DNA from: Desulfomonilia bacterium
Lineage (GTDB): Bacteria; Desulfobacterota; Desulfomonilia; UBA1062
Length of the DNA: 64,000 nucleotides
NCBI GenBank assembly: GCA_050014195.1
Contig: JBEKDT010000013.1
Location: 32,001 to 96,000 of the forward strand
Direction of reading: 5' to 3'
Positions 6,546 to 63,742 of this stretch are shown one piece after another (the stretch's first letter is position 1; each line of letters opens with the position of its first letter). The position numbers and the translations under genes were made by a program. The notes below the pieces were generated by a model, which saw only the letters and a list, made by a program, of their open reading frames with translations, was not told the origin of the DNA and did no database searches.

Positions 6546-7268
6546 ATGACTATCAGACACCTTTTGGGCCTGTGGGTTTATAAGATGAATTGGAATAAGT
6601 GGATTAGAGGTTTCTTGACACTTATTCTTTCCATGGTTGTGATGATCATGTTATCCGCGCCCCTTTATGCTGATGTGAACGTCCAGGATCTGGAAATGGG
6701 GACCCACGATTATATCATTGACAAACAGCAGTCATTTAATTGTTCCATGGTCCAGATGAGTGATAATGAGCTTTCCGACGTGACTGCCGCCGGTTTTTCC
6801 AGTTTCACGTGGGATAATAGTATCCCAGATATTAGTGTCGCCACGGCATATCTCAATATCCAGACGAGCACGTTCACTGAGATCCAATCCCTTAAGATGG
6901 GTTATCATAATAGTGGCTGGGATGAAGACTGGACGAATGTTTCGCTTGGTTCATCAACGCAGGATCTTGTTTGCAAAGGGTTCACTATTCAGGCTAGTTT
7001 CTCAAACCTCACCGATCCGGCAACGAGAACACTCAACAGCCTCACAGTTGGCACCCCTTCGATGACCGGCCCCATCAGTGCCTACTTCAATTCGTTTACC
7101 GGGCATATAGGGAACGGTACAGATACAGGAGGGGTCGACTATACCCGGACAGACCTCTCAAGCTCCGGCACCGTCGTGAGGACGATCTATAGTAACAGTG
7201 ATAAGTTCTATATACAGCTTTCAAGCACAGGTTGGTTGTTTTACTGGAGAAATGGTACGCTCAATTGA
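6546..7268 (+). CDS. Secreted FilA/DUF6160-related minor subunit with C39-type leader
   Basis: Signal peptide ending APLYA; internal leader MVQMSDNELSDVTAA-G; Ser/Thr-rich beta sequence. Start may be 6585. Confidence 0.65.
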   Translation: MTIRHLLGLWVYKMNWNKWIRGFLTLILSMVVMIMLSAPLYADVNVQDLEMGTHDYIIDKQQSFNCSMVQMSDNELSDVTAAGFSSFTWDNSIPDISVATAYLNIQTSTFTEIQSLKMGYHNSGWDEDWTNVSLGSSTQDLVCKGFTIQASFSNLTDPATRTLNSLTVGTPSMTGPISAYFNSFTGHIGNGTDTGGVDYTRTDLSSSGTVVRTIYSNSDKFYIQLSSTGWLFYWRNGTLN

Positions 7269-7526
7269 GAAAGGCTTATAAAGAAGTTATGAAGACACAC
7301 AGGGCACTTACACTTAAAGTATGTAAATGCGATTCAATCGGGAGAGGGAGGTCTTTGCAGTGATTCTCCCAGCCCTGTGCATTTTATAAGGAAGGAAAAA
7401 TCGAAAAGGGGGTGATGCTTGGGTAGTAGGACTAAGTAGGACTAACCAATACAGACCAACAGGAAAAAAGGAAATGCATTAACAATGACGCAACTAAGAA
7501 AAAATAAAAAATGGAGGCAAAACGTT

Positions 7527-8756
7527 ATGAAGAGAGTATTGACTATTCTGGCTATTCTTCTCCTGCCCCTTTCCGTATGGGCAATGACCCCTGTCACTGA
7601 TTCCGACCTTTCCAATGTGACAGGCCAGGCTGGCGTGAGTATCAACCAGGATGTTATGATGAACATCCATATGGACGTCATGGCATGGGGTGATACTGAT
7701 GGCCTCGGTTTAGCAGGCATCGGCACCACTTCTGCACTTAAAACCGGTCTCAACCCATGGACCGACGTTACCACGGGCGGTTACATTGGTATCAAAGGCT
7801 TTGACATGGCTCTGAGGATAAAGGCACGTACCACTGATACATACGGTGCAGCCACTGGTTCAGACACGAACGCTGTTTATGGTGTTTATAACCCAACCAG
7901 TTATCCCGGCCTCAAGCCTCTGACCATCGATGTTGCGACTACGACTGCCGCCCAGGATCCCAACCTCTATGGCGCCGGCGTGACCTTTGTTCGCATCGGT
8001 CTTGGTTCCATGGAAATCGACGTGAGCGCAATGTCGTTTGATATCGGCCTCAGCTCACATGCTGGCGTTACTGCCACCAATGCCCCGACTCTTAATCAGA
8101 TTCTCGGCACCGTATCAATGGGTAACATCGGCATCTTCATCAGCCCCTACAGCTATGTTGACATCTACAATGGCGCCAGAGGAACAGGTTCTGGTGTAAC
8201 CTTCGGCATCCACTTCCAGATCGATCAGTTCAACATGGACTATATCTCATGGGGTGACAAGGATGGCTTTACCAACGTCGACACAAGCGATAATGCTGGT
8301 ATGCTACCAGGCTACACCAATACTAATCCGTTCCCCTGGGCCGCAGCAACTAAGGGCGGTTATATAGGGCTTGGCACGCTTAGGGTTGGTGGACCGATCA
8401 CGATCACAGGCACCGTGAATATTGACGTGGGTACTGTGACAACCGGTTACTATGCCTCGGCTGCCGCTATTCTGACCGGTGGTACAATAACAAATGTGCC
8501 GATGGTCCACATTACATTCGGGAATATGTCTGCTGCTGCTGGCGGACCCGCAGCGGGCCCAGCTTATGCTAACGGTGTAGGCCTTGAGGTGAATGTCCCC
8601 TCGATTATGGCAAACATAGCCCTTAGCGACACAGCAAATTTACTGAATAATTTTACTGGTTCCGTGCCGTCTGCAAATGTGTTGGGTGACATCTACATCA
8701 GCAACTTTAATTTCAAGATTATTAAAGGCAGCTGGGTAGACATCTTTGCCCACTAG
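7527..8756 (+). CDS. DUF6160/FilA-like secreted protein, probable major fibre subunit
   Basis: GGAGG RBS at 7513, start 7527 (ORF track 7485). Signal peptide LSVWA, then MTPVTDSDLSNVTGQAGVSI. Gly/Thr/Ala-rich, Cys-free, internal two-fold repeat, ends WVDIFAH. Confidence 0.8.
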   Translation: MKRVLTILAILLLPLSVWAMTPVTDSDLSNVTGQAGVSINQDVMMNIHMDVMAWGDTDGLGLAGIGTTSALKTGLNPWTDVTTGGYIGIKGFDMALRIKARTTDTYGAATGSDTNAVYGVYNPTSYPGLKPLTIDVATTTAAQDPNLYGAGVTFVRIGLGSMEIDVSAMSFDIGLSSHAGVTATNAPTLNQILGTVSMGNIGIFISPYSYVDIYNGARGTGSGVTFGIHFQIDQFNMDYISWGDKDGFTNVDTSDNAGMLPGYTNTNPFPWAAATKGGYIGLGTLRVGGPITITGTVNIDVGTVTTGYYASAAAILTGGTITNVPMVHITFGNMSAAAGGPAAGPAYANGVGLEVNVPSIMANIALSDTANLLNNFTGSVPSANVLGDIYISNFNFKIIKGSWVDIFAH

Positions 8757-8768
8757 TTGATTACTTGC

Positions 8769-8811
8769 GAGGAAACAGGGGGGCTTTGTCTCCCCTGTTC
8801 CTCCTTTTATT
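8769..8811 (+). terminator. Intrinsic terminator/attenuator after the major subunit gene
   Basis: GAGGAAACAGGGG..CCCCTGTTCCTC stem followed by CTTTTATT. Confidence 0.7.
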
Positions 8812-8859
8812 GATATGGAATGAAATGAGGATAAAGCGGAGGGATAATAAAAGGACATT

Positions 8860-9738
8860 ATGAAAAAAAACATTCTCCTATTTCTCGCAATCCTGATGCT
8901 GCCGGTTACCGCAGGTGCCATGACGCCTATCAGCGATCACGAGCTTTCGAATGTGACAGGCCAGGCCGGGGTGAGTATCAGCATGGATGTTATGATGAAC
9001 AGCACCTTTGGTTCATTCAAGTTTTCAGACACCGACAACGATCCTGTAAACTGGATCGAGTTCAACAACATAACAATCACAAGCCGATGGGAAACACTTC
9101 AGGGCAGCCCCCCAATTACCTTAGATATAGCTACCGGGAACAACATAGATAATACCGAGAGGACATGGGTTAACCTGGTTTTATCTCAGTATTCGCAGCC
9201 TGAAACATGGGATATCGGTAATTTCGTTTTCGTCAACCAGGACATCGGCAATCTCCAACTTGAAAATATGATGATGGCAGAGCCTGCTGTTTTGCGTTTC
9301 TCCGCGCATCCCGGCGTTGGAACATCAGGACTGGAATTTGAGTATTTGAGCAGTTGGATGGCCCAGGATATTTCCTATAATTATAATACATCTGGGGGCA
9401 ATCTCCAACTATCCGGCATACATTTTGCGGCATCAGCGAGCAGCCCCACCGATGACCCGAGCAATCCTTCTACCTGGCAGTTCACCGGATCGTTCCGCGT
9501 GGGAGATCTAATGGGAGGTAACATCCCTGTTGACAGCACCAACGCCTCTGTTCCTAACCCTGCAACCTTTGATGTAGGCACCACTTCAGACGGGTATACA
9601 TCCGTGTATCTTAATCTTCCGCTCAAGGGTACGATCAGGGTTGCGGATGTACAGTTCGGAGGTCAAGATCTCGGTCCTATCGCCATTGACGGTATTGTTG
9701 CGCACCATCTTTTTGTAAAGATCGGTGGAGCTAACTGA
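8860..9738 (+). CDS. DUF6160/FilA-like secreted protein, second paralogue
   Basis: Signal peptide VTAGA, then MTPISDHELSNVTGQAGVSI, nearly identical to the previous gene's N-terminus. Confidence 0.78.
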   Translation: MKKNILLFLAILMLPVTAGAMTPISDHELSNVTGQAGVSISMDVMMNSTFGSFKFSDTDNDPVNWIEFNNITITSRWETLQGSPPITLDIATGNNIDNTERTWVNLVLSQYSQPETWDIGNFVFVNQDIGNLQLENMMMAEPAVLRFSAHPGVGTSGLEFEYLSSWMAQDISYNYNTSGGNLQLSGIHFAASASSPTDDPSNPSTWQFTGSFRVGDLMGGNIPVDSTNASVPNPATFDVGTTSDGYTSVYLNLPLKGTIRVADVQFGGQDLGPIAIDGIVAHHLFVKIGGAN

Positions 9739-9758
9739 CCATTCATTAGTCAGACCTG

Positions 9759-10523
9759 ATGCCTATTGTTATCGGCTTTTTTATCATATTGACTTTCCTT
9801 GGAACCATGTATCCCCTCAGAGACATTCCCAAGGGAGACATGCAGATTTTTCCCCATATGGCCGGGATAGAGAACCTCCCGCTTAGATATAATGTACAAC
9901 CATTTACTGAAGAATTCAATTTCAAGAATGTTGTGAAACAGCAATATGATTATAGCTGTGGCTCCGCTGCCCTTGCCACGCTTCTCAACTATTACCTTGG
10001 GGAGCAATTCAGCGAGCAGCAGGTAATTCAGGGCCTCATGCACTATGGCGATGCCGAGAAAATCCAGGAGCGAAGGGCGTTCTCACTGCTCGATATGAAA
10101 CGTTTTTGTGAGGTGCTCGGGTATAAAGCTGAAGGGTATAAAGCGGATCTCGATGATCTCAAGGCCTTACATAAGTCTGCAATTGTCCCCATAGAATTAA
10201 CAGGATACAAACATTTCGTCGTATTCCGCGGCTTCTATAAAGACCACATTTTTTTTGCAGATCCATACAGAGGCAATTCAAGCTTTACTATTGATAAATT
10301 TCTTGAGATATGGAGCCAGAATGTCATCTTCGTTGTATCGAGTGAGACCGTGCAGACGAATGCCCTTCGGTTGAAGAACGAAGACTTGCGAATCATCGAC
10401 TATGACTTCACAAAAGATGCAATAGCACAAATACCCATTCCCCAAACCATCACGGAGCAGCAGCGATTGATCGAATCTCTGGGCGGGAAAGTATTTAAGA
10501 CCCAAAATGGGAATGTATATTGA
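9759..10523 (+). CDS. Stand-alone C39 family cysteine peptidase (FapD/FilB-like)
   Basis: QQYDYSCGSAALATLL (catalytic Cys), YKHFVV (His), FADP (Asp), FSLLDMKR; N-terminal hydrophobic segment; no ABC domain. Confidence 0.9.
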   Translation: MPIVIGFFIILTFLGTMYPLRDIPKGDMQIFPHMAGIENLPLRYNVQPFTEEFNFKNVVKQQYDYSCGSAALATLLNYYLGEQFSEQQVIQGLMHYGDAEKIQERRAFSLLDMKRFCEVLGYKAEGYKADLDDLKALHKSAIVPIELTGYKHFVVFRGFYKDHIFFADPYRGNSSFTIDKFLEIWSQNVIFVVSSETVQTNALRLKNEDLRIIDYDFTKDAIAQIPIPQTITEQQRLIESLGGKVFKTQNGNVY

Positions 10524-10611
10524 CGACACTTGATATTGTAAGATTAACGCTTTGTATTCGCAATTAAATAATGTATTAAATAAAATATTCATACTATGCG
10601 AGGGTCTATCA

Positions 10612-11679
10612 GTGAGACAAGCTTTGTTAGTAGGACTGATGGTCATGTTCATAATGGGTTCAAGCAGGGTTTTATATGCAGATGATCAGCCAAAGAATGA
10701 TAACTCCCAACAGGAGCTGCTTGATCGGATAGATACGCTGGAAAAGGAGCTGCAAAAGCTCGAGGAGGAAGGCAAGGCAAGAAAGAGCCTGGAAGTCACC
10801 GAAGAGGAAAAGGGTGAGAAAGAAAAAGAGGTGCTGGAGGCAGTAAGCAGGGAATATACCCTTTCGGCCAAAGGCACCTTGTCAATAGATTATGGTCTCA
10901 ATTATTCCTATTCCCCGAGTGAAACTATTTATACTACGGCACAGGCGCTCCAGTTGCAACGTGCTGTAAATCATACTATTACAAATTCCATTTACACCTC
11001 ATACAGTTTTCTGGACAACCTCACGACAAGCCTTAGCCTGCCCATTGTTTACCGTTATGACAAGGTGGGGACAGACCAAAGCCTTAGTGAAACAGATATC
11101 GGAGATATATCATTTGGGTTTGCCTTCCAACTCCCCCATCAGCTTAAAATACCTGGAGGTATTACTAGCACCTACAGCTTTGGCGCCGCATTTCCCACAG
11201 GCCGGAGCCCATACAAAATCAACCCGAATACCGAGCTCTCTACAGGTAGCGGAGAGTACTCGTATTCATTAGGGGGCAGCTTCAGCAAACAGATTGATCC
11301 TGTAGTTGTATTCTGGAGCCTTGGAATAGGATACCCATTAGGTCTCAAGAATCTCAATTACAAGATATCGGACACGTACACATTGGTTAAAGTAGACCCC
11401 CCACTTTCCTATAGTCTCAGCATGGGTATGGGGTATGCTCTATCATATGCCAACTCCATCAATATGTCATTCTCTTACGCATATGCACAATCAACAAAAC
11501 TGACCTATAAGGAATTAACATCACCTGTTAAAACGGGAGACAGTGTTTCTGCTTCATTTGGAGTGGGTATGGGCTTTATGGTTACACCCAAGACGACTGT
11601 ATCGGTCTCGCTTGCATACAGTCTGGTAAGTGCAGGGTTCTCGTTGTCCACCAGAATACCTTTTGATTTTGTGTTGTGA
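10612..11679 (+). CDS. FapF/FilC-like outer-membrane beta-barrel secretion channel
   Basis: Probable GTG start at 10612 (ORF track 10552). Signal peptide, acidic coiled coil (ELLDRIDTLEKELQKLEEE), barrel with GDISFG, FPTGRSPY, TGSG and KQIDPVV motifs. Confidence 0.78.
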   Translation: MRQALLVGLMVMFIMGSSRVLYADDQPKNDNSQQELLDRIDTLEKELQKLEEEGKARKSLEVTEEEKGEKEKEVLEAVSREYTLSAKGTLSIDYGLNYSYSPSETIYTTAQALQLQRAVNHTITNSIYTSYSFLDNLTTSLSLPIVYRYDKVGTDQSLSETDIGDISFGFAFQLPHQLKIPGGITSTYSFGAAFPTGRSPYKINPNTELSTGSGEYSYSLGGSFSKQIDPVVVFWSLGIGYPLGLKNLNYKISDTYTLVKVDPPLSYSLSMGMGYALSYANSINMSFSYAYAQSTKLTYKELTSPVKTGDSVSASFGVGMGFMVTPKTTVSVSLAYSLVSAGFSLSTRIPFDFVL

Positions 11680-11692
11680 GGAGGTTAGTCAG

Positions 11693-13390
11693 ATGAAGAG
11701 ATTCCGCTTTACCTTCCTTTTCATCCTGATTTTAATGACATATTTACCTTCCACACTGTTTGCAGCCCTGTACGAACAGCTTGCCATCTCGGCCCTTGGC
11801 GGCTCCATGGGCAATGCTGTGACCGCATATCCGGAAGAAGCCGGTGCTTTGTCTATACATTACAACCCGGCAGGACTTGCGGATATCCCGGGTACGCGTT
11901 TTGATAACGGTCTTGGGATAGTCGAAACTTATCGACAGGTTACCTTTCATCAGGCCATCGACCCCATTACAGGCAAGCCCTGGGCACCGTTCGGTCAGAA
12001 TAACATTCCTGGGTTCAATAATGGGGTAGATCCGCTTAACGGTGTGAAAGCCAAGCAGTCAAGCGGATTTATGATTGTACCTTATATTGATTTTGATTTG
12101 CCATATCTTATAACACCCTCTATGGGCATCTCATATAAGCCGCCTGAGCCGCAATACTCCCGATGGACCTTTGGGTTTGGTCAGTTTGCTCCCTTTGGGG
12201 CAGGGCTCAAGAACTCAGCAAACAGTCCGTTGAGCTTCTTGGGCCAGGAGGCCTGGTTTGTGAGGATGAGCTTCATAACACCTGCTGTTGCCTATAAGCT
12301 TTCTGATACTGTCTCAATAGGGGCATCGGTGGGGGTTGGTCCGTCAATGTTCATGCTCGAGACAAATTTAAGGACCCCCAACACCATGGTCGCACTGACC
12401 GGTGCCCTTGGAAATGCGACGAAAGGTCTCGAGATCCCGGTGGTATCCGAGCTCACATTACCACCGCCCTGGTTCAACGGCGGAATGACACCATATACAC
12501 CCCAGGGTCATCTCATGCTGCAAGTGGAAGACTATATCACCACCTCTTACAACTTAGGTATTCTCTGGAAACCCTACGATTGGTTCTCCTTTGGGGCATG
12601 TTACCAGAGCGAGTCCGAAGCCAATATGACAGGAACTTTCAAGTTATCATACGGTTACCAATTCCGCAGGACGGTTGACTGGTTTGGCAGATCACCTCTG
12701 ACGATTGTTACAGCAGCCATTTTTGACTTGCCGACCCAGTCGGTACCTTACCAGGCAGGTAACGCCTCCATGGACCTGACTTGGCCGGCCCGCCTCCAGA
12801 TGGGCATAATGCTCAATCCCATTAAACAGGTGAAATTTACTTGTGATGCAAACTGGACAGACTGGGCCGTGCAGCCGGATTGGAAGTTCGTTTTTGATCA
12901 AAAGATCCAACTCTACCGTTTCGCTCGGATGCTTGGGTATCGGTATTCAACTGATACCCAGGTAATAACGCAAGACTTTAAGGACACCTGGAACTTGAGT
13001 TATGGCTGTGAGCTCAAGCCCGATGCAAAGCACACACTGCGTTTCGGGTATGACGCACGGCCGACGTCAGTCAGGAACAATCTCTTCGGGCCTTTGCCCT
13101 TCTCGGATATCACGATCTACTCTGCAGGCCTCGGGATCGTGGTAGATGACAAGCCCAAGCCCAAACCGCGGAACTTCAATGAACGCTTGCAACAGCTCAA
13201 TAATCCAAATGAAATAAACATTACGGTGAGTTACATAAAACTTGCTGATAAGACCGTCTTGAGCAACACCAGTAAAAACCTCAACTCCACGACTTTCACC
13301 GACATTGTTTATAATCCCTATTCAGGGCTCGATTGGACTCAGAAGATGCACCTATGGTGGTTTTCAATAGATCAGGTTTTCAAGTGGTAG
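11693..13390 (+). CDS. FadL-family (FilD/AupA-like) outer-membrane transporter
   Basis: GAGGAGG RBS, start 11693. SMGNAVTA..SIHYNPAGL hatch motif, PAVAYKLSDTVSIGASVG, C-terminal FKW. Confidence 0.85.
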   Translation: MKRFRFTFLFILILMTYLPSTLFAALYEQLAISALGGSMGNAVTAYPEEAGALSIHYNPAGLADIPGTRFDNGLGIVETYRQVTFHQAIDPITGKPWAPFGQNNIPGFNNGVDPLNGVKAKQSSGFMIVPYIDFDLPYLITPSMGISYKPPEPQYSRWTFGFGQFAPFGAGLKNSANSPLSFLGQEAWFVRMSFITPAVAYKLSDTVSIGASVGVGPSMFMLETNLRTPNTMVALTGALGNATKGLEIPVVSELTLPPPWFNGGMTPYTPQGHLMLQVEDYITTSYNLGILWKPYDWFSFGACYQSESEANMTGTFKLSYGYQFRRTVDWFGRSPLTIVTAAIFDLPTQSVPYQAGNASMDLTWPARLQMGIMLNPIKQVKFTCDANWTDWAVQPDWKFVFDQKIQLYRFARMLGYRYSTDTQVITQDFKDTWNLSYGCELKPDAKHTLRFGYDARPTSVRNNLFGPLPFSDITIYSAGLGIVVDDKPKPKPRNFNERLQQLNNPNEINITVSYIKLADKTVLSNTSKNLNSTTFTDIVYNPYSGLDWTQKMHLWWFSIDQVFKW

Positions 13391-13458
13391 ATTGAATTTA
13401 GATATAAGGTTCATCACCGTAAAGCATACTCGGATCATTGAGGAGCACACAGAGGGAT

Positions 13459-13668
13459 TTCTCACCACGAAGGACACGAAGCATCAATTTGATGAACTCT
13501 CGACCCGGGTCATTGGCTGTGCCATCGAGGTACATCATATTCTAAATGAAGTTGGCAGGTGTTAAGACCGGCCTGCTGATCAACTTCAATGTGAAAGTGC
13601 TTCGGACGGGTGTTAAGCGTTTTGTCCTATGATCTTCTTCGTGCTCTTCGTGTCCTTCGTGGTGAGAA
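13459..13668 (+). pseudogene. Internally deleted GxxExxY-family gene bounded by perfect 23-bp inverted repeats
   Basis: N-terminal fragment FDELSTRVIGCAIEVHHIL (from 13488) joined out of frame to C-terminal fragment MKLAGVKTGLLINFNVKVLRTGVKRFVL* (13546-13632). Ends are TTCTCACCACGAAGGACACGAAG and its exact reverse complement at 13646-13668. Confidence 0.8.
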
Positions 13669-13795
13669 CAATAGGTTGGGAAAGGATGCAAACCATATTT
13701 CATGAGCTTGCTTCACAATAGCAAAACCTGTATAGGATAAATTGATCGTTATATCTGGTCATACTGAACTATCTGAGAAAAGGAGAAGGTCCAGC

Positions 13796-15304: not shown

Positions 15305-15343
15305 AAACAGCTCCGATCTGGTCGCATAATTTTACATTACTCT

Positions 15344-15467
15344 AGAGGCAATTGCAAAACTTAAAAAAGGTGTCACCCCCGCGAAAGCGGGGGTCCAGAA
15401 GTTTTTGAAAAGACTGGATTCGAAGCTTCCGCGGGAATGACGATCTTGGTCTTTTGCAATCGGCTCT
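15344..15467. mobile_element. MITE/REP-like palindromic element, copy 2 (inverted relative to copy 1)
   Basis: Core 15371-15441 is the reverse complement of 6208-6278 apart from the loop and one stem base. Outer inverted repeat AGAGGCAATTGCAAAA / TTTTGCAATCGGCTCT. Confidence 0.72.
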
Positions 15468-15531
15468 TTATATTATTCAATATTATATAAAACGGAGCAA
15501 TACTATATTTTATTATATACCAACTATAAAG

Positions 15532-32598: not shown

Positions 32599-32602
32599 AT
32601 TC

Positions 32603-52321: not shown

Positions 52322-52395
52322 GATGTATTTCGAATTTAAAAATCCGAAATAGTAGCAAGTTGATCAGCACCACAACGTGTTATGAGTGAAAAGCA

Positions 52396-53343: not shown

Positions 53344-53349
53344 TATAAA

Positions 53350-54895: not shown

Positions 54896-56911
54896 ATGAA
54901 CTTACTTCATAGCCTTAAGGACAGGAATGTTCCGGCATCAGTCATACCAATCTTGATTGTTCTGCTCATTATTGTCAGCATCCTATTCGTATATGCACAG
55001 GTCGGAAGCCATGAATTTATTAATTTTGATGATCAATTGTATGTAACGGACAATCCTATAGTAAAAGCCGGTGTTACTTGGAATGGTATTAAATGGGCAT
55101 TCAGTTTTTCTGATAGAACATATTGGCATCCGCTCACATGGCTTTCCCATATGGTGGACTGTGAGTTGTTCGGCCTTAACCCTGGAAAGCATCATCTCGT
55201 GAATGTTTTCTTGCATATCATCAACAGTATTTTGTTGTTTTTGGTTTTTATGATGATGACAGGAACTCTTTGGAGGAGTGCTTTTGTAGCTTTTTTATTT
55301 GCTTTGCATCCTATCAATGTAGATTCTGTGGCTTGGATTGCCGAAAGAAAAAATCTATTAAGCACATTATTCTGCATGTTAACCATAATGGCATATATCT
55401 ATTACTCACGCAGACCTTCTTTTTATAAATATATTCTCATTCTATTTGTTTTCACGCTTGGACTTCTTTCAAAACCCATGCTTATCTCTATTCCTTTTGT
55501 TCTCATATTACTTGATTTTTGGCCGCTTAAAAGAATTAATTTTGATTCTTTGTTGACCAGAGAACAAATATCAATAGGAATCAGCAATGGAAGACGAGCC
55601 CAAAGAACACAAGCGCTCAAATTGATAATTGAAAAAATTCCACTTCTCATTCTATCTCTTGTAATTATCGGTACATCTATCATCTCATTTCAGCACCATA
55701 GTGATGTTATTTCATCAAACTTAATAAGTACAAAGTTACGTGTGGCTAATGCCATGGTTTCTTATGTTAACTATATGGGTAAACTGATTTGGCCGAGAAA
55801 CTTGACAATATACTATCCATATCCAGCCAGTCTGCCCATGTGGGAAGTGATTGGAGCCAGTGTTTTTATTTGTACTGTGACTATTCTGGCGGGCCTTTAT
55901 GCAAAAAAATTACCATACCTAATCGTTGGGTGGCTCTGGTACCTAGGAACTTTGGTGCCTGTGAGTGGGTTGATCCAGGTGGGGCTCTGGCCTGCCATGG
56001 CTGAGCGATGGGTTTACATCCCTGCAATTGGATTATTTATGCTGGTAGCATGGTTGATTCCCGACTTGGTTTCAGAGTTCAGGTTTAAAAAACTTGTCTT
56101 GAGTACACTGGCTGTTATGGTGATCTGTATACTAATGATCTTAACATGGAGGCAAACCGGATATTGGAAAAATGATTTTATATTGTTTTCCCATGCACTA
56201 CAGGTCAATGAAAGAAACAGTATTGCATACAGTAATTTGGGCGATTATTACTTAAATATCAATAGGCCTGGAGAAGCGATAGAATATTACGATAAATCTA
56301 TAAAAATAAATCCATATGACCCTCTCGTTCAGAACAACTTTGCAATAGCCTTGCTCAAAGAAGGGCGTTATGAAGAATCTATTAAATACTTTAAAAAAGC
56401 TATCTTGAGTTATCCCAGAGATCCGCAATTATATAGTGGTCTCGGGATTGCATCTGCTCATCAGAATAGAAATACAGAGGCAATAGAATATTTTTCGAAA
56501 TCCTTAGATATTGACCCCGGCAATGCTGAAGTACATTTTGAGCTTGCTTATATTCTCAGTGAAGAGAGAAGATTTGATGAAGCCATAATTAATTTTAAAA
56601 AAGTCCTTTCTATAAATTCTTCTCATGTTGGATCATTGTTTGGGCTATCAGCCGCATATAGCCAAAAAAAGGACTATAATGCATCGATGACTTTATTAAA
56701 GAAACTTCTTGATATTCAACCTGATAACCCCAATGTTTATTATAACATAGCCTGTATCTATGCTAAACAGAACAAGGCAGATGAATCTGTTAGTTGGTTG
56801 AATAAAGCTGTTCAGAAGGGATTCAACAAATGGAACCTTATGAAATCGGATAGTGATCTGGATAATATTCGGGGGAACAGGGAATATTTTGATATTATTA
56901 AGGGAAAATGA
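54896..56911 (+). CDS. TMTC-like GT-C glycosyltransferase with TPRs
   Basis: FINFDD, WHPLTWLSH, HPINVDSVAWIAERK, SKPM, AERWVYIP, TPRs and YYNIAC..KGF..DSDL cap. Paralogue of 47896..49779. Confidence 0.82.
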   Translation: MNLLHSLKDRNVPASVIPILIVLLIIVSILFVYAQVGSHEFINFDDQLYVTDNPIVKAGVTWNGIKWAFSFSDRTYWHPLTWLSHMVDCELFGLNPGKHHLVNVFLHIINSILLFLVFMMMTGTLWRSAFVAFLFALHPINVDSVAWIAERKNLLSTLFCMLTIMAYIYYSRRPSFYKYILILFVFTLGLLSKPMLISIPFVLILLDFWPLKRINFDSLLTREQISIGISNGRRAQRTQALKLIIEKIPLLILSLVIIGTSIISFQHHSDVISSNLISTKLRVANAMVSYVNYMGKLIWPRNLTIYYPYPASLPMWEVIGASVFICTVTILAGLYAKKLPYLIVGWLWYLGTLVPVSGLIQVGLWPAMAERWVYIPAIGLFMLVAWLIPDLVSEFRFKKLVLSTLAVMVICILMILTWRQTGYWKNDFILFSHALQVNERNSIAYSNLGDYYLNINRPGEAIEYYDKSIKINPYDPLVQNNFAIALLKEGRYEESIKYFKKAILSYPRDPQLYSGLGIASAHQNRNTEAIEYFSKSLDIDPGNAEVHFELAYILSEERRFDEAIINFKKVLSINSSHVGSLFGLSAAYSQKKDYNASMTLLKKLLDIQPDNPNVYYNIACIYAKQNKADESVSWLNKAVQKGFNKWNLMKSDSDLDNIRGNREYFDIIKGK

Positions 56912-57210: not shown

Positions 57211-58158
57211 ATGAATGTCACAATAGTCGTACCTGTCTACAACAGCAGTACCATACTTCCCGATCTCGTAGTACGGCTGAATCCTGTCCTAGCAGCCAAC
57301 TATGAAACATATGAGCTTATTCTTGTGAATGATGGGAGTAGGGATGAAAGCTGGAATGTTATATGCTCTTTGGTTTCCCAGCATTCTTGGATCCGGGGAG
57401 TAAATCTCATGAGGAACTATGGACAGCACAATGCTATTCTCTGCGGCATCCGTTTGGCTCAATTTGAAGCCATCGTGACCATGGATGATGACCTTCAGCA
57501 TCCGCCCGAAGAGATTCCTCGGCTCACAAATAAGCTGAGCGAAGGATATGATGTCGTTTACGGAACGCCCATAGAACAGAAGCATGGATTATGGAGGGAC
57601 ATGGCCTCCATCATCACGAAGGCATCACTGCAAGCCGCTATCGGGGCTGAAACGGCAAGAATGGTAAGCGCGTTCAGGGTATTTCGAACACAAGTCAGAA
57701 AAGCCTTTGAAGATTATCGTGGGTCTTTTGTTTCATTGGATGTTTTGCTCACCTGGGGCACGACGCACTTTACTGCTGTTCCGGTCAGACATGACCAAAG
57801 AAAGAAGGGGATCTCAAACTATACTATCTGGAAATTGATTAACCATGCCGTGAACATGATGACCGGATTCAGCCCTGTGCCGCTTCAGCTTGCAAGCATT
57901 ATAGGGTTCCTGTTCACAATCTTTGGATTTGTAATACTCGTATATGTAGTAGGGAATTATTTTATTCATGGAGGCAGTGTACCGGGATTCTCCTTCCTGG
58001 CATGCATGATAGCCATATTCTCCGGGGTTCAGCTCCTGATGCTTGGCATCTTCGGCGAGTACCTTGCCCGTGTCCATTTCCGCACCATGGATCGGCCCAG
58101 CAGCATCATCCGAGAAATCAGAGAGCCGCGATCTAACGTTGAAGAAGACCGTATATGA
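57211..58158 (+). CDS. ArnC/GtrB-like undecaprenyl-phosphate glycosyltransferase
   Basis: VVPVYN, VNDGSRD, RNYGQHNA, TMDDDLQHPPEEI, two C-terminal TMs, GEYLAR. Confidence 0.9.
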   Translation: MNVTIVVPVYNSSTILPDLVVRLNPVLAANYETYELILVNDGSRDESWNVICSLVSQHSWIRGVNLMRNYGQHNAILCGIRLAQFEAIVTMDDDLQHPPEEIPRLTNKLSEGYDVVYGTPIEQKHGLWRDMASIITKASLQAAIGAETARMVSAFRVFRTQVRKAFEDYRGSFVSLDVLLTWGTTHFTAVPVRHDQRKKGISNYTIWKLINHAVNMMTGFSPVPLQLASIIGFLFTIFGFVILVYVVGNYFIHGGSVPGFSFLACMIAIFSGVQLLMLGIFGEYLARVHFRTMDRPSSIIREIREPRSNVEEDRI

Positions 58159-58925
58159 GTAAAGAACAAAACCCGATCTCGCTCTCAGTCCTTGATGAAG
58201 AACGTTTCGGTATAAGGATTGCTAAGGCTCCACTGGTGAAGATCGAGGCCATCCCCCATATGCTGGATTTTTGCAAAGCGAATCAGGTGGAACTCCTTAT
58301 TTCCCGCTGCTCCACAGAAGACCTGAAAGCAGCCCAGGAAATGGAGAGATTAGGTTTCTCTCTCATGGACACGCTCATATATTTTATCCGCGACCTTAAT
58401 ATAAAACCGATTTCCAATGAAGATCCAGAAGTTCATGTGAGGAATTTTGAACAGGGTGAAGAACATTCAGTCAAGTCCATAGCCAGAGAATCCTTCCATG
58501 GCTATCTCAGCCATTATCATGCAGACAGCAGGCTCGATAAAAAGAAATGTGATGAAGTCTATACTGACTGGGCTTACAGGTCTTGTGTCTCTACAATGGT
58601 AGCCGATCAAGTACTTGTTGCAGAGAAAAATGGAGAGATAATCGGTTTTGGAACCATGCGTATGAACAACGCGATAGAAGGGGAAGGCCTTCTCTTCGGG
58701 GTTGTCCCTTCATTACAGAGGCAAGGTGTTTATCGGTCAATTATAGTGAAATGCTTGCAATGGTGTACTGTAAGAAAACTTCATGTCATGACTATCTCAA
58801 CACAGATCACTAATTTGGCTAGTCAGAAGGTATGGATCCGCCTTGGATTCGAGCCGAACCATTCATACTATACTTTTCACAAGTGGTTTTCTGAGCTTGA
58901 AAACAGAGACTTTAAGAGGTCATGA
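58155..58925 (+). CDS. GNAT N-acetyltransferase, WecD/RffC-like (dTDP-4-amino-sugar acetylase)
   Basis: SHYHADSRL..Y.DW, GV.PSLQRQG, STQITN; adjacent to wecE. Confidence 0.75.
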   Translation: MSKEQNPISLSVLDEERFGIRIAKAPLVKIEAIPHMLDFCKANQVELLISRCSTEDLKAAQEMERLGFSLMDTLIYFIRDLNIKPISNEDPEVHVRNFEQGEEHSVKSIARESFHGYLSHYHADSRLDKKKCDEVYTDWAYRSCVSTMVADQVLVAEKNGEIIGFGTMRMNNAIEGEGLLFGVVPSLQRQGVYRSIIVKCLQWCTVRKLHVMTISTQITNLASQKVWIRLGFEPNHSYYTFHKWFSELENRDFKRS

Positions 58926-59803
58926 GAGTCTGTACCTTCTGTGGGCAGCGATTTGCATCGAATGACTGGCAGTGCCCCCGGTGTGGATGGGCACCTTTAA
59001 TTCGCAAGGGGTTCATTTCTTTTCTTAATGAAGATCCACTATCCGGAGAGTCCTTTGATTCAGAATATTTTGCCAGGTTACACCATCTAGAAAAGGAAAA
59101 TTTCTGGTTTCAGCACCGCACAAGGCTCATTATCAGGGCTATCGAGGAGTACTTCCCCTATAGTAAGAAAATTCTTGAGATCGGATGTGGTACAGGTCTT
59201 GTCCTCTCCGAGGTCGGACGAAGTTTCTCGGATGTGTCCCTGTCAGGAAGCGATTTATTTGTGGAAGGGCTCCATTTTGCTAAGTCAAGGATGCCGGATG
59301 CTGCCTTCTACCAGATGGATGCTTGCTGCATGCCCTTTGAAGATGAATTTGACCTTATCTTGGCACTGGATGTACTCGAACATATTGAAGACGATTCCAG
59401 GGCGATAAATGAGTTATGCAGATCGCTTAAATATGGTGGAGGGTTGATCATAACTGTTCCCCAGCACCAGTGGCTCTGGTCGATTCAGGATGAGAAGGCT
59501 TATCATAAAAGAAGATATGCCAGGAAAGAGTTAATGGATAAGTTGGTAAAAAACGGATTCCAGGTTATTTATGCAACTTCCTTTATTACACTATTGCTTC
59601 CAGTATTGGTCTTTTCAAGGATTTATGGCAGGATTATTACAAGAACCCAGTATGAGTATGACCCAATGAGGGAATTAAAGATTGCTTATTCACTCAATAG
59701 GATTCTTTGTATCATATCCAAGACTGAAGAACTTTTATTGAGAGCTGGTATTTCTTTTCCTGCTGGGGGGTCGCTGCTCTGCATTGGGAGAAAAGGACGT
59801 TGA
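58922..59803 (+). CDS. Class I SAM methyltransferase with N-terminal zinc-ribbon
   Basis: CTFC..CPRC, NFWF..R, LEIGCGTG, LDVLEHIEDD, TVP..WS..D...H.RRY. Confidence 0.88.
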   Translation: MRVCTFCGQRFASNDWQCPRCGWAPLIRKGFISFLNEDPLSGESFDSEYFARLHHLEKENFWFQHRTRLIIRAIEEYFPYSKKILEIGCGTGLVLSEVGRSFSDVSLSGSDLFVEGLHFAKSRMPDAAFYQMDACCMPFEDEFDLILALDVLEHIEDDSRAINELCRSLKYGGGLIITVPQHQWLWSIQDEKAYHKRRYARKELMDKLVKNGFQVIYATSFITLLLPVLVFSRIYGRIITRTQYEYDPMRELKIAYSLNRILCIISKTEELLLRAGISFPAGGSLLCIGRKGR

Positions 59804-59804
59804 T

Positions 59805-60953
59805 ATGGGAGATGAAAGGATAAGGATACCGTTTAACAAACCCTTCATTGCAGGCAAGGAGCTCTACAACATCGCCCAGGCAGTGCTCAAGGGACACCTT
59901 GCCGGAGATGGGCACTTTACAAAACTCTGTCATACTTGGCTAGAAGAAAAGCTTGGCACAAGGAAAGCCCTGCTTACCCATTCTTGTACAGCAGCCCTTG
60001 AGATGTGCGCGATCCTGTGTGACATCACCCCGGGTGATGAGATCATAGTGCCATCATTCACTTTTGTTTCAACGGTCAATGCCTTTGTGCTCAGGGGAGG
60101 TGTACCGGTATTCGTAGATATAAGGTCCGATACCCTGAACATAGATGAAAAGAGGATTGATGACGCAATCACCAGGAAAACCAAGGTGATCGTTCCTGTA
60201 CATTACGCAGGTGTCCCTTGTGCCATGGATGAGATAATGCGCCTGGCCGAAAAACATAATCTGCTCGTTGTGGAAGATGCTGCACAGGCCCTGCTTTCTA
60301 CCTACAAGGGAAAGTGTCTGGGTGCAATAGGGCATTTGGGTGCATTGAGTTTTCACGAAACAAAGAACATTATCAGCGGAGAGGGTGGGGCGCTGCTGGT
60401 GAACGATGATCGATTCATAAAACGTTCTGAGATCATCAGGGAAAAAGGCACTGACAGGGCACAGTTTTTCAGGGGGGAGATCGACAAATACAGTTGGGTG
60501 GACATTGGCTCCTCATATCTTCCCAGTGAACTTATTGGCGCATTCCTCTATGCACAGATGGAACAGGCTGAGCAAATTATAGCCAAACGCCGAGGTATTT
60601 TCGATCTGTATTATTCTTTGCTAAGACCCCTTGAAGAGAAGGAACTTATCCGACTTCCATATATAACAACCAGTGATTGCTCATGTAACGGGCACATATT
60701 CTATATCATCATGAATTCTCTTGGAGACCGCACTAAACTTATAAAATATTTGAAGAAGAATGACATATTATCAGTCTTTCACTATGTGCCCTTACATTCA
60801 TCTCCTGCCGGAATTAAATATGGCAGAATTGCTGGGAGTATGGATGTTACGAATGACATCAGCGAAAGATTGCTCAGGTTGCCAATTTATTATGAGATGG
60901 AAGATGTTGATGTCATATATGTTGTTGATAGGGTTAAGAACTTTTTTAGCTGA
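59805..60953 (+). CDS. rffA: dTDP-4-amino-4,6-dideoxygalactose transaminase (WecE/RffA)
   Basis: IPFNKP, GDGHFT, SCTAALEM, PSFTFVST, VHYAG, EDAAQ, SFHETKN, GSSYLPSE, VFHYVPLH. Start 59805 (ORF track 59784). Confidence 0.92.
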   Translation: MGDERIRIPFNKPFIAGKELYNIAQAVLKGHLAGDGHFTKLCHTWLEEKLGTRKALLTHSCTAALEMCAILCDITPGDEIIVPSFTFVSTVNAFVLRGGVPVFVDIRSDTLNIDEKRIDDAITRKTKVIVPVHYAGVPCAMDEIMRLAEKHNLLVVEDAAQALLSTYKGKCLGAIGHLGALSFHETKNIISGEGGALLVNDDRFIKRSEIIREKGTDRAQFFRGEIDKYSWVDIGSSYLPSELIGAFLYAQMEQAEQIIAKRRGIFDLYYSLLRPLEEKELIRLPYITTSDCSCNGHIFYIIMNSLGDRTKLIKYLKKNDILSVFHYVPLHSSPAGIKYGRIAGSMDVTNDISERLLRLPIYYEMEDVDVIYVVDRVKNFFS

Positions 60954-60979
60954 ATGGTCAAATTTTAATAGAATATATA

Positions 60980-63742
60980 ATGGTGGGATCACCAAGTACT
61001 AGTATTAGTGAGAAGAATTTATGTTATGAGGGGATATGCTTGGACAATAGCCATAGTAGCAAAGAAATGAATAATTCTAATTCTATCTTACCCAAGCCCT
61101 TCATTTTCTATTTCATTATCATTATTCTTCCTTTTCTAATGTTTTTTTGGATGATACCTTTTATTGGCAACATTACTTTAGGTAATGATTATACTCTTTA
61201 CCCAACTGCACATCAAATGGAGCTTATGTTCTCCATAAAGACTGGATCTTTTCCTCTTTACATTCCTGGCTTCGCAGGTGGTCAATCTTCTTCAGCACTA
61301 ACTCTAGGGCAAATATTTCATCCCATATCCTGGATCTCTGCGCATATGCCTGGATATTGGGATGGGAAAGCCTTGGAATGGAATACTCTTTTCCGATTGC
61401 TCTCTCTCGGTTTAACCCAATTATTGTTATTTGAATTTTTACGGAGATTGAAATTTAATAACCTTGTCTCTTTTTTACTTTCCTTTGTGACAGTTTATAA
61501 TCTTCGAATGCTCGATTTATTTCGTTATGGAGCATCACTTGAAAGTTGGACAGGGCATCTGCTTCTTTGTACTGCAATCGGATTATATTATCTTAACCAG
61601 AAGGGCGGTTGGAAAGAACCTTTATTTATCATCGGATCAACGTACTGGCTTGTCTGTAGTGGTCATCCACAAATGATGTATTACGGTTTGCTCGGTGCCG
61701 GTCTTTTTGCTTTAATAATACCATATTTTGTGTCGATTTTCTTGCCGGAAAAAGGTGTTGAGATAAAAAATCTGATCAGATTTTGGGGGAAGACGGCCCT
61801 TTTTTGTTGTGCAGGGATTGTACTATCATCTGCATACATAGTTCCCTTTTATTTTGACTTTATGACAACTTCAGCAAGGATTGGAAAGAGTTATGAATGG
61901 GCCAATATGTATTATACTGACACATTTATAGGAACAATAAACAATTTTTTCCAGCCCCTCAGGACTACAGTGGACGGGAATTTCGGTGGAACATCATTAT
62001 TCATCATTCCTGCACTAATACCTTTATTATTATTTCTTCGTGTAAGAGTTCCACGTGTCATTTGGGCAACATGGATATTAGTCCTTTTTGCATTTTTACA
62101 TATGCAGGGTGATAGAACACCGGTTCATTATATTGTTTGGAAATGCTTGCCCTTAGCTTCTTCATTTAGGGTTGCAGGTAGGATCGCAATGATCATCCCT
62201 ATATTGTTAATGTTAATGCTTGCTTGGTTATTTCGATCAAATTCTCCTGCATCAACATCAATAAATAAAAAATTAAAAGTTAATCCTGTAATGATCTTAG
62301 CTTGCATAGGTATGCTATTAATCACAGTGTACAACTTAATCCCAAACTCTATTACTTCGAATACACATGAGTTCTGTCCGGCAAATATACATCTAATTCC
62401 AAACAGTATAATGATACTTTACATTATATTGGGGATGCTTGCTCTCCTAACATTTTGTATACATAATATCTTTAGTAACAAAAAATACATTACAGAATTT
62501 ATATTGTGCATAATTACTTGCATACAGGTTATGATACTTTTGGGATGTGGTACATGGATGGAATACAAGAAGGATACTCCCAATTTCCAGTCGATGACCT
62601 TTCAAAAAATTAAGGGGCTTGATTACCAAGGTAAAACAGGGGTGGGATTAAATCAAGCCATCATTATGAAGCAAGTAGAACGATCATATCTGGAACCCTT
62701 TCTTGGGAAGTTTTATTCTCAGCATATTAATGCTCAAAGCAATGAAGATGCCTATTCAATAATGGAAAGAGGTCGTACTCCAGATCAAGTTGTTTTAGAA
62801 GGATATAACCCTAAGAATAATAAACTAGAAAATAGGCAATTAGCTGAGAAAACTTCAGGCCATGTGAAATTGATTTATAGTTCTTTTAACCGGTTGATCT
62901 TTGAAGTCTCTTCCTTAAAACCTGGCTTTTTAGGCCTTTCCTACCCATACAATGGGCATTGGAGAGCAATACTTAAGAAGCAGTATGTTCCAGTTTATAG
63001 GGCTAATGGTGCTTCACATGCTGTATATGTACCTGCTGGTACCAATCTTGTTGAATTCAGATATTGGAGCACTGCTGCTTTTGTTGGAATAGTTTTAAGC
63101 TGTTCTATGATTATCATTATTGGATTTATTTTCATGCATAGATTTTCAACAAAAAATGTAGGATATGTATTCACAATTTTATCCCTTATTTTTAGTATAA
63201 GTATTTTTATTATTTGGTATTATAGCTTGTATACAGGCAAAAACCTTAATACGGTTTATACATGGGAATCTTCTCCTGAAACTTATAATAATCTTGCTTA
63301 TAGTAAGAGGACTGAAATGTCGTCTTCAACACTAATACCTGATTCTTTACTCAATGATCCAGGTACAGCTTATCTAAAACAATATCCATATCTGTATACT
63401 AGTGGCAAAGCTGTCGATGGTGATCGATCTCCAAAATCTGGTTTTATTACAGCTTTAGTAAACCAACCATGGTGGAGGGTAGATCTAAATCGTGTAGAGA
63501 ATATTGGTTCTATCGTTATTTATGAATCTCTTATAGGCGATAACTGGAATGTACGTCCGTTGATGTTGGCATATTCAAATGATAAAATCACATGGGGAGT
63601 AATGAAATTTTCTAATTCTGGGCCAAAAATTTGGCTTCATTTTAATAAACCTATAACTGCTCGATATGTTGAGATAATGTCTTCTGGATATTGTAAGCTC
63701 TCCTTTGATGAAGTAGAGATTTATCCCCTAATTGAAAGATAA
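60980..63742 (+). CDS. YfhO-like GT-C membrane protein with C-terminal discoidin (F5/8 type C)-like domain
   Basis: Multi-TM with GND, SGHPQ; YfhO-like YNGHWRA..VYRAN..AVYVPAGTNLVEFRY; C-terminal KAVDGD..PWWRVDL..ARYV..EVEIY. Start uncertain (possibly 61067). Confidence 0.72.
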   Translation: MVGSPSTSISEKNLCYEGICLDNSHSSKEMNNSNSILPKPFIFYFIIIILPFLMFFWMIPFIGNITLGNDYTLYPTAHQMELMFSIKTGSFPLYIPGFAGGQSSSALTLGQIFHPISWISAHMPGYWDGKALEWNTLFRLLSLGLTQLLLFEFLRRLKFNNLVSFLLSFVTVYNLRMLDLFRYGASLESWTGHLLLCTAIGLYYLNQKGGWKEPLFIIGSTYWLVCSGHPQMMYYGLLGAGLFALIIPYFVSIFLPEKGVEIKNLIRFWGKTALFCCAGIVLSSAYIVPFYFDFMTTSARIGKSYEWANMYYTDTFIGTINNFFQPLRTTVDGNFGGTSLFIIPALIPLLLFLRVRVPRVIWATWILVLFAFLHMQGDRTPVHYIVWKCLPLASSFRVAGRIAMIIPILLMLMLAWLFRSNSPASTSINKKLKVNPVMILACIGMLLITVYNLIPNSITSNTHEFCPANIHLIPNSIMILYIILGMLALLTFCIHNIFSNKKYITEFILCIITCIQVMILLGCGTWMEYKKDTPNFQSMTFQKIKGLDYQGKTGVGLNQAIIMKQVERSYLEPFLGKFYSQHINAQSNEDAYSIMERGRTPDQVVLEGYNPKNNKLENRQLAEKTSGHVKLIYSSFNRLIFEVSSLKPGFLGLSYPYNGHWRAILKKQYVPVYRANGASHAVYVPAGTNLVEFRYWSTAAFVGIVLSCSMIIIIGFIFMHRFSTKNVGYVFTILSLIFSISIFIIWYYSLYTGKNLNTVYTWESSPETYNNLAYSKRTEMSSSTLIPDSLLNDPGTAYLKQYPYLYTSGKAVDGDRSPKSGFITALVNQPWWRVDLNRVENIGSIVIYESLIGDNWNVRPLMLAYSNDKITWGVMKFSNSGPKIWLHFNKPITARYVEIMSSGYCKLSFDEVEIYPLIER

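Follow-up and report, generated by a model that had tools for sequence, protein, structure and literature searches.

A Fil-type fibre operon adjoining a glycosylation island in a Desulfomonilia bacterium, and the case for glycosylation of its subunits

The DNA analysed here, called the window below, is a stretch of 64,000 nucleotides from a Desulfomonilia bacterium (G000:C13:32001-96000, that is, part of contig C13 of genome G000, which has 4.2 Mb in 29 contigs). It carries a predicted fibre operon of seven genes (6546-15304, + strand) with subunits of the family DUF6160, directly followed by a glycan island of ~53 kb. The island codes for six membrane proteins with C-terminal tetratricopeptide repeats (TPR), for which a glycosyltransferase fold of the GT-C type is supported by structure models. 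The main finding is that the linkage between such a fibre operon and such an island is conserved, not universal. By analogy with a known pilin system we give about even chances to the reading that the GT-C enzymes of the island O-glycosylate the fibre subunits in the periplasm and that the fibre is one of their real substrates.

A sequence-only reading of this DNA had proposed a fibre operon adjoining a glycosylation island, and the genes were found where it placed them. Two of its boundaries have been moved. It put the first GT-C-TPR gene about 2 kb past the operon; since relatives keep the PD40 gene as a conserved member of the operon, the gap is 150 bp, from 15304 to 15454 on the same strand. 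No terminator-like site was seen in this gap by a promoter and terminator scan whose totals were not above those of shuffled sequences. It also let the island end at 63742. Beyond this point come a methyltransferase, a family 2 glycosyltransferase (GT2) and the gene of a sixth membrane-TPR protein, and the island runs from 15454 to the window-equivalent position ~68309, 4.3 kb beyond the end of the window.

Conservation of the linkage

That the linkage should be looked for in relatives had been suggested from the sequence alone, and the counts bear it out in six of the seven evaluable genomes of the same family and in five of 13 distant loci. The FilB model, which finds the peptidase of the operon, matched 11 of 60 relatives; every one of the 11 belongs to the family of the window, and nine have a full Fil-like operon. 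The contig extends past the operon in seven of the nine. All seven enter island genes and six enter GT-C-TPR genes; in the exception, G024, only a Dpm1-like GT2 and sugar genes are found past the operon. The gene order at the junction varies between the genomes of the family. In G008 an open reading frame (ORF) of 991 amino acids (aa), similar to the animal TMTC proteins, is placed between FilD and the PD40 gene on the operon strand.

Strong TMTC-like matches are concentrated on the contig which carries the Fil operon (~12 of 18 in G002, 5 of 8 in G008, 5 of 7 in G011, 3 of 4 in G005 and 2 of 2 in G018). Extra full-length DUF6160 paralogues are found inside the GT-C arrays of three loci (L024, L027, L031) and also in separate mini-islands together with GT-C-TPR genes (G008:C1, G002:C22). 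When all DUF6160 frames are considered, 14 of 34 large ones lie at most 15 kb from a strong TMTC-like match vs 3 of 46 small ones.

Outside the family we used a distant sample of 13 strong Fil loci out of 400 genomes of the phylum; five of these, in three genera, have a TMTC-like gene within ~10 kb. A set of 80 named loci gave a TMTC-like gene in 6 of 17 from delta/Desulfobacterota. It should be noted that three of these six (L062, L065, L117) lie on contigs from G002, G140 and G100, genomes which have already been counted.

The fibre operon, the membrane-TPR proteins and the island

The window proteins scanned against Pfam and NCBIfam were the 47 non-shadow ORFs among 67 ORFs of at least 100 aa (Table 1). 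The operon shows the Fil gene order: subunits, C39 peptidase, FilC barrel and the FadL-like FilD. None of the curated cut-offs was reached, neither for the Fil models NF050077-NF050080 (FilA 35 bits against a cut-off of 220, FilB 212/475, FilC 153/630, FilD 245/970) nor for the Fap models (FapD 127/330, FapF 49/700). No further Fil-named model matched any window ORF and no other Fap model did so at E <= 1e-5. Because all these scores are far below the cut-offs we classify the operon, from its sequence, as a distant Fil-type system, homologous to the known ones and not an equivalog of them. Of 80 fetched loci from Pseudomonadota and Desulfobacterota, 71 showed the FilB-FilC-FilD core, and the core order with a stand-alone C39 peptidase and a FilC/FapF-like barrel is common to this operon, the Fil pili of Acinetobacter (filA-F) and the Fap exporter of Pseudomonas (FapD/FapF). 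PMC11784438 names FilA as the protein of which the Fil pilus in Acinetobacter sp. Tol 5 has its subunits. Unlike those two systems the present operon contains a PD40 protein; its gene follows directly after FilD in seven of the eight same-family loci which reach past FilD, G008 being the exception. Homologues of the 6546-7268 product (51-54% identity) are the first operon gene in the six same-family loci showing them, and the residues Q61, C67, H152 and D168 of the C39 peptidase are invariant across 23 homologues.

Subunits A and B have a Sec signal followed by a conserved leader-like motif, D/E-L-S-x-V-T-G-Q-A-G. In the slightly more relaxed form D/E-L-S-x-V-x-G-Q-A-G, a bacteriocin-like leader of the double-glycine type, it is present in every DUF6160 protein (window 7527-7640 and 8860-8975; loci L003-L005 and L024-L048). 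A profile made from 15 family members of DUF6160 matches the solved helical pilus 9xfv with E 8.5e-5 over part of the subunit; the two DUF6160 subunits of the window gave no match in the PDB by phmmer. The 9xfv chain starts at the residue after G-Q-A of the leader motif, which suggests that this is where the C39 peptidase cuts. The 7527-8756 product is likely to be the major fibre subunit.

The subunits had been called Ser/Thr-rich. This holds in so far as the Ser+Thr content of the three subunits is 17.6-23.3%, whereas the crude long ORFs of the genome average 11.4% and the subunits rank at the 96th-99th percentile among them (the 6546-7268 product has 23.3%); the enrichment is raised, not extreme, and the FilC barrel is equally rich (20.8%). 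The median size of the mature subunit is ~290 aa here vs ~150 aa for Pseudomonadota, where the leader regular expression found just five subunit candidates in 63 loci, so that neither the size nor the Ser/Thr comparison with Pseudomonadota is usable.

Some side observations concern the DUF6160 genes. A GC-rich hairpin of 10 bp with a T-rich tail (8774-8799) lies 18 nt past the stop codon of the first DUF6160 gene and looks like an attenuator; the scan was not above shuffles. Many small orphan DUF6160 genes (frames of ~115-280 aa) are located far from Fil operons, for example at C12:141476, C17:99461 and C22:29324 of G000, and at least one is present in all 14 genomes of the genus, including those which lack FilB. 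Two genes are interrupted by an in-frame stop codon, one orphan DUF6160 frame (G000:C2:119912-120166) by TGA and a weakly TMTC-like paralogue (G000:C3:109644-110873) by TAG; a pseudogene, recoding or an assembly error could account for either case.

The GT-C label of the membrane-TPR proteins was at first a guess and is now supported for both subtypes by structure models. Subtype 1, the TMTC-like one, has four members (the genes starting at 42287, 47812 and 54896, and the one beyond the window), and subtype 2 has two (15454 and 44910). Pfam searches with the N-terminal halves of the six proteins at E <= 1 gave no glycosyltransferase family and just weak TPR matches at the end of one of the cut sequences. 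In subtype 1 three motifs are invariant in all 17 sequences of alignment A2: the DD of the first loop, HP(I/L)H and K..T.PF. The Atlas neighbours of its N-domain include PMT_2 clusters (score 0.98) and a cluster of eukaryotic TMTC_DUF1736 (0.95). The AlphaFold2 (AF2) model of 47812-49779 has a predicted local distance difference test (pLDDT) value of 82 and a predicted template modelling score of 0.79, and its residues 4-409 align with the oligosaccharyltransferase AglB (3waj_A; Z 17.4, root-mean-square deviation 5.0, 315 residues; VIA-wide). AglB is the sole contiguous membrane-domain match among the best 50 listed, the remainder being TPR or other helical-repeat proteins. A PDB profile search with the full A2 alignment and a Foldseek search with the full model gave TPR proteins only. 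For subtype 2 the AF2 model (15454-17253) has pLDDT 65, and its structural matches of ranks 1-20 are all GT-C proteins or the GT-C-like PIGU, with Z from 18.2 to 8.9, followed from rank 21 on by Z <= 7.8 (VIA-wide); they include STT3 (Z 18.2 over 448 residues), ArnT (Z 17.3 over 403), PglB and Pmt1/4. Within the D-G-D of subtype 2, G-D is invariant in 5 of 5 sequences. The DD of subtype 1 and the G-D of subtype 2 are putative catalytic residues.

When subtype 2 (alignment A3) was compared with subtype 1 (A2) by hhalign, only the C-terminal TPR end was aligned, and sequence homology of the two membrane domains is for this reason not shown. We call subtype 1 TMTC-like and not members of TMTC because TMTC_DUF1736 of Pfam gave no match, neither with full proteins at E <= 1e-3 nor with N-domains at E <= 1; a weak PMT_2 match was found (1.3e-5; 25.9 bits against a cut-off of 26.1). 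A DD and an HP(I/L)H segment are described for the animal TMTCs in the part of PMC7801869 which deals with the motifs. Subtype 1 shares with TMTC1-4, which belong to the GT-C/PMT clan, the multi-helix membrane domain followed by a lumenal or periplasmic TPR domain (predicted topology here), the DD of loop 1 and the HP(I/L)H of an early helix; it differs in its bacterial host and in its donors, which are probably undecaprenyl-phosphate deoxyhexoses and not Dol-P-Man. In total the genome holds 12 GT-C-TPR genes.

As a whole the island contains, besides the six membrane-TPR proteins, five Dpm1/ArnC/PgfS-like GT2, a TIGR00374 flippase-like protein, rmlA/C/D, gmd, fcl, a WecE-like aminotransferase with a WecD-like GNAT, a Wzx-like flippase, three GT2 and two family 4 glycosyltransferases (GT4), an RgpF-like protein of 988 aa, about eight methyltransferases, three Acyl_transf_3 and one hexapeptide acetyltransferase. 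Five of the six GT-C-TPR genes lie at most 500 bp from a Dpm1/ArnC-like GT2, directly or via a neighbouring GT-C-TPR gene. Homologues of the GT2 at 47109-47858 (74-81% identity) adjoin GT-C-TPR genes in relatives, and the flippase-like gene 49802-50908 travels there with the GT-C/GT2/Gmd-Fcl module. The aminotransferase within 57211-60953 matches dTDP-4-amino-4,6-dideoxygalactose transaminase with 1.2e-179, above the cut-off. No clear rmlB (dTDP-glucose 4,6-dehydratase) was found in 31726-38574; the best TIGR01181 matches besides gmd and fcl were far below the cut-off.

The 920-aa membrane protein closes the operon which is opened by the ArnC-like GT2, beside the GDP-fucose genes, and 2j1r, to which its C-terminal domain is similar, is related to fucolectin and the fucose-binding F-type lectins. 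Its membrane part might be another lipid-sugar transferase. It matched no known family, and hhalign against alignment A4 gave a probability of 0.9%.

Among the genes upstream of the operon, two of the three exported proteins in 3132-6107 have homologues which precede the operon in relatives as well.

Table 1. Features of the window and of the adjoining end of the island
Position	Strand	Feature	Basis or remark
1-3045, runs off window	-	Protein >1015 aa, seven PAS domains; possible regulator of the region	Upstream of fibre locus
3132-6107		Three Ser/Thr-rich exported proteins without family (outer-membrane-protein-like, 368 aa; 173 aa; lipoprotein-like, 296 aa)	Precede operon
6546-7268	+	Small exported protein, 240 aa, leader-like motif; operon gene 1	No Pfam/NCBIfam family
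7527-8756	+	DUF6160 subunit A, 409 aa from inner ATG	Pfam DUF6160 E 1.7e-11
8860-9738	+	DUF6160 subunit B, 292 aa	Pfam DUF6160 E 5.7e-18
9759-10523	+	Stand-alone membrane-anchored C39 cysteine peptidase, FilB/FapD-like	Pfam Peptidase_C39 3.7e-19; FilB 1.1e-62; FapD 4.6e-37
10552-11679	+	FilC/FapF-like outer-membrane barrel	NCBIfam FilC 1.2e-44, FapF 3.4e-13
11630-13390	+	FilD, outer-membrane barrel of FadL/Toluene_X family	Pfam Toluene_X 1.5e-33; NCBIfam FilD 1.4e-72
13742-15304	+	PD40/TolB-like beta-propeller, last operon gene in lineage	Pfam PD40; NCBIfam TmcD_fam 2e-37, below cut-off
15454-17835	+	GT-C-TPR, second subtype, 793 aa	Fold model; C-terminal TPR; Atlas cluster named RgtA/B/C/D-like, score 0.98
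17888-41802		Sugar-building block: 3 Acyl_transf_3, ~6 methyltransferases, RgpF-like 988-aa glycosyltransferase, GT2 x3, GT4 x2, rmlA/C/D, hexapeptide acetyltransferase	Pfam/NCBIfam
29362-30720		Wzx-like flippase	Pfam Polysacc_synt 2.1e-16
40849-41802		Dpm1/AglJ-like GT2	Pfam/NCBIfam
42287-44860	+	TMTC-like GT-C-TPR, 857 aa, divergent from GT2 40849-41802	Aligns with TMTC-like set, invariant DD and HP; TPR matches
44910-47090	+	GT-C-TPR, second subtype, 726 aa	41% identity to 15454-17835; in the alignment used for the subtype 2 model
47109-47858	+	Dpm1/AglJ-like GT2, putative polyprenyl-phosphate sugar synthase	Glycos_transf_2 7.2e-23; AglJ, dolichyl-P hexose transferase, PgfS and PpgS matches below cut-off
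47812-49779	+	TMTC-like GT-C-TPR, 655 aa, modelled	AF2 model, motifs, Atlas clusters
49802-50908	-	LPG_synthase_TM/TIGR00374 'flippase-like' membrane protein, candidate lipid-sugar flippase	Pfam 7.5e-45; TIGR00374 3.1e-25
51203-54801	+	gmd, fcl (GDP-fucose synthesis); methyltransferase-GT2 (Dpm1-like) fusion	TIGR01472 9.3e-176; GDP-L-fucose synthase 7.5e-147; Methyltransf and Glycos_transf_2
54896-56911	+	TMTC-like GT-C-TPR, 671 aa	40% identity to 47812-49779, same motifs
57211-60953	+	ArnC/PgfS-like GT2, WecD-like GNAT, methyltransferase, WecE-like aminotransferase (4-amino-4,6-dideoxyhexose branch)	ArnC 1.6e-53, PgfS 4.4e-44, WecD 1.6e-18
60980-63742	+	920-aa polytopic membrane protein, C-terminal F-type-lectin-like domain	F5_F8_type_C_2 1.3e-9; phmmer to 2j1r E 2e-5, residues 806-915
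63805-68309 (window-equivalent)	+	Methyltransferase, GT2, sixth GT-C-TPR (753 aa; in TMTC-like alignment)	L008 ORFs 406-1140, 1199-2113, 2649-4910; Pfam

Proposed glycosylation of the fibre and the alternatives

The proposed mechanism is as follows. The subunits would be exported by Sec, trimmed at their double-glycine-like leader, probably by the periplasmic C39 peptidase, and would leave the cell through the FilC/FilD barrels. Cytoplasmic enzymes would make dTDP-rhamnose, GDP-fucose and a dTDP-4-acetamido-4,6-dideoxyhexose, and the five Dpm1/ArnC-like GT2 would charge polyprenyl phosphate with single sugars. A flippase-like protein, perhaps the TIGR00374 one, would move the lipid-linked sugars outward, where the six GT-C enzymes would transfer them to an acceptor bound by their periplasmic TPR domains. 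The likeliest acceptors would be Ser and Thr of the DUF6160 subunits as they cross the periplasm, before or around C39 trimming and export. Of all this the analysis itself establishes the gene content, the GT-C fold, the TMTC-type motifs and the conserved linkage, whereas we infer the donor lipids, the role of the flippase, which acceptor is used and whether the fibre bears a glycan; that the GT-C enzymes use polyprenyl-phosphate sugars is suggested by the five adjoining genes for predicted Dpm1/ArnC/PgfS-like GT2.

A close precedent is TfpW of Pseudomonas aeruginosa group IV (Pa5196/PA7), described in the sections concerned of bioRxiv 10.1101/2020.04.19.049825 as a polytopic GT-C protein which carries a DDX motif in its first periplasmic loop and ends, at the C-terminus, in a TPR domain on the periplasmic side. 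According to the same sections tfpW is located just after pilA and is needed for pilin glycosylation, and the lipid-linked donor comes from separate genes. The likeness, drawn from these described features, is that a GT-C-TPR gene lies beside the gene of a fibre subunit. The present locus differs in that the fibre is of the Sec/C39/FilC-FilD kind and not a type IV pilus, in having six GT-C-TPR genes of two subtypes vs one, and in its deoxyhexose pathways vs D-arabinofuranose. The logic that a GT2 makes a polyprenyl-phosphate monosaccharide, a flippase moves it and a GT-C enzyme transfers the sugar outside the cytoplasm is that of GtrABC, ArnC/ArnT and the streptococcal PgfS/PgfM. Unlike GtrABC and ArnC/ArnT the island shows no GtrA or ArnE/F homologue and has the TIGR00374 protein in place of these, and its GT-C enzymes bear TPR and form a six-gene array. 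In streptococci the glycosylated parts are Ser/Thr-rich regions of membrane-associated proteins, as stated in the pertinent lines of PMC12041528.

It is possible, though clearly less likely than not, that the fibre is heavily and combinatorially glycosylated, stepwise, by six dedicated GT-C-TPR enzymes, each with its own polyprenyl-phosphate sugar synthase (fucose, rhamnose, 4-acetamido-dideoxyhexose), and that the sugars are further methylated or acylated. In such a system subtype 2, which has oligosaccharyltransferases as its best structural matches, might transfer a Wzx-flipped oligosaccharide en bloc.

That the DUF6160 subunits are glycosylated, as the sequence-only reading supposed, is thus favoured by the linkage, by the paralogues embedded in the arrays and by the TfpW precedent. 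Several points weigh against it. Any glycan on the subunits is putative, and 9xfv, a helical filament from cave water called 'pilus-like-alpha', which is a solved pilus of the DUF6160 type, is treated as a plain protein pilus in the text on it in PMC12956863. Within the phylum the Ser+Thr fraction of mature subunits is the same in linked (0.175) and unlinked (0.183) loci. Three loci with DUF6160_A paralogues have no GT-C gene nearby, and eight of the 13 distant Fil loci lack the linkage. Unlike the locus described here, none of 63 Pseudomonadota Fil loci has any island gene within 10 kb, and glycosylation is therefore not intrinsic to Fil fibres. In the 36 genomes of the family the Fil operon and strong TMTC-like genes occur together in eight, the Fil operon only in one, TMTC-like genes only in eight and neither in 19, which means that 8 of 27 genomes without Fil have strong TMTC-like genes. 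One of these cases, G025 (99% complete), has the GT2-TMTC-flippase-Gmd-Fcl module and no match to DUF6160 or FilB, so the enzymes must have other acceptors too; G012 (91% complete) has the whole island and no FilB was found in it. Six of the 12 GT-C-TPR genes of the present genome are scattered among housekeeping genes, and no common neighbour of these six was found. The family counts also overstate independence, because the relatives are kin.

The strongest alternative is that the island serves a general periplasmic O-glycosylation of several envelope proteins, with the fibre as at most one substrate, and that the adjacency reflects the clustering of surface genes in a variable island of low GC content. 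We regard this as rather unlikely on balance. In its favour, besides G025 and G012, six other genomes of the family have the module with no Fil operon detected, half of the paralogues of this genome are scattered as just mentioned, and in other families four of the five genomes checked have 12-15 paralogues each. The GC content of contig C13 is 45.7% vs ~50% in the other large contigs, and the island (15454-64000) is a mosaic of blocks of 34-52% GC, similar to horizontally exchanged surface-glycan loci. What general O-glycosylation leaves unexplained is that most paralogues of the Fil-bearing genomes cluster at the Fil operon, that a GT-C gene sits within the G008 operon and that DUF6160 paralogues are embedded in the arrays. 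It should be noted that a general system is compatible with a glycosylated fibre and is a rival only to the view that the enzymes are dedicated to it.

It is distinctly less probable that the island builds or decorates a non-protein glycan such as a lipopolysaccharide O-antigen, a capsule or a rhamnan, made by means of Wzx and the RgpF-like protein, with the GT-C enzymes adding side-branch sugars and the TPR domains docking export machinery. The gene content agrees with such a glycan: a Wzx-like flippase, an RgpF-like glycosyltransferase, rml genes, a set of GT2 and GT4, and many O-methyl- and acyltransferases. GtrC and ArnT add side-branch sugars in the periplasm, and a logic of the GtrABC and ArnC/ArnT type fits the pairs of GT2 and GT-C genes. 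TPR domains are also present in polysaccharide export proteins, and weak matches to BcsC and PgaA were seen. However, the partners which such a pathway should have were not found. The sequence-only reading had noted a Wzx in the window and none of Wzy, Wzz, Wza, Wzm/Wzt or WaaL; in agreement with this, the Polysacc_synt match was confirmed and none of the families Wzy_C, Wzz, Poly_export, ABC-2 and Bac_transf was found in the 47 window ORFs (Pfam, E <= 1e-3). Export or polymerase genes immediately beyond the window had been named as a finding that would speak against a glycosylated filament, and the same families were absent from 48 flank ORFs in 16.6 kb upstream and ~38 kb downstream (E <= 1e-5), one exception for ABC-2 being an efflux-like TetR/HlyD/ABC-2 block ~63 kb past the window end. 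Altogether no Wzy, Wzz, Wza, Wzm/Wzt, WaaL or initiating (phosphoglycosyl)transferase was found in the window or the scanned flanks, an absence which is not firm because Wzy is divergent and the 920-aa membrane protein matches no family. The Wzy_C (C17, C1, C9), Bac_transf (two on C9) and Poly_export (C25) matches of the genome are all located outside contig C13 (Wzz was looked for in the window and its flanks), and contig C9 carries a separate conventional locus with Wzy_C and the two Bac_transf genes. Moreover, the closest sequence relatives of the enzymes, the TMTCs, act on proteins, as the part of PMC7801869 on their function states, and a non-protein glycan leaves the conserved tie to the fibre operon unexplained.

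Chance adjacency is very improbable and already disfavoured. GT-C-TPR genes are numerous in the phylum (a genome can have as many as 18 TMTC-like matches; of five other genomes checked, four have 12-15 copies per 3-6.5 Mb and the fifth has one) and the eight unlinked distant loci fit chance, but the rate estimated from the copy numbers is ~5-9% per 20-kb window, whereas 6 of 7 were observed in the family and 5 of 13 outside it, the latter from no fewer than three further genera, with differing gene orders.

Implications for surface fibres and their possible glycosylation

The principle of a GT-C-TPR enzyme acting on a fibre subunit is already known from TfpW, and a glycosylated Fil-type fibre would be the new part. 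The Fil/DUF6160 class of fibres is barely studied, and the literature we found on DUF6160 amounts to a passing mention. Our literature searches (DUF6160, FilA/FilB, Fil pili and Fap combined with glycosylation) turned up no Fil or Fap fibre described as glycosylated and no paper naming a substrate for the bacterial TMTC-like GT-C-TPR proteins.

If periplasmic glycosylation of the fibre subunits is true, a second, unrelated fibre pathway joins that of TfpW and type IV pilin as a case of GT-C-TPR fibre glycosylation. Animal TMTC enzymes mannosylate cadherins, and if the dedicated combinatorial system holds, bacterial TMTC-like enzymes would have their first identified substrate in the fibre, and the cadherin O-mannosylation pathway a counterpart in prokaryotes. 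If the enzymes instead serve general protein O-glycosylation, the locus is an uncharacterised multi-enzyme periplasmic glycosylation system. The conserved linkage gives an enzyme-substrate hypothesis which is concrete and testable. A search of sequencing runs found near-identical DNA in 24 metagenome runs from peat and wetland; no RNA run was among the runs listed as carrying it. A glycosylated fibre of this kind could help explain how anaerobes of peat and wetland build surface fibres and matrix.

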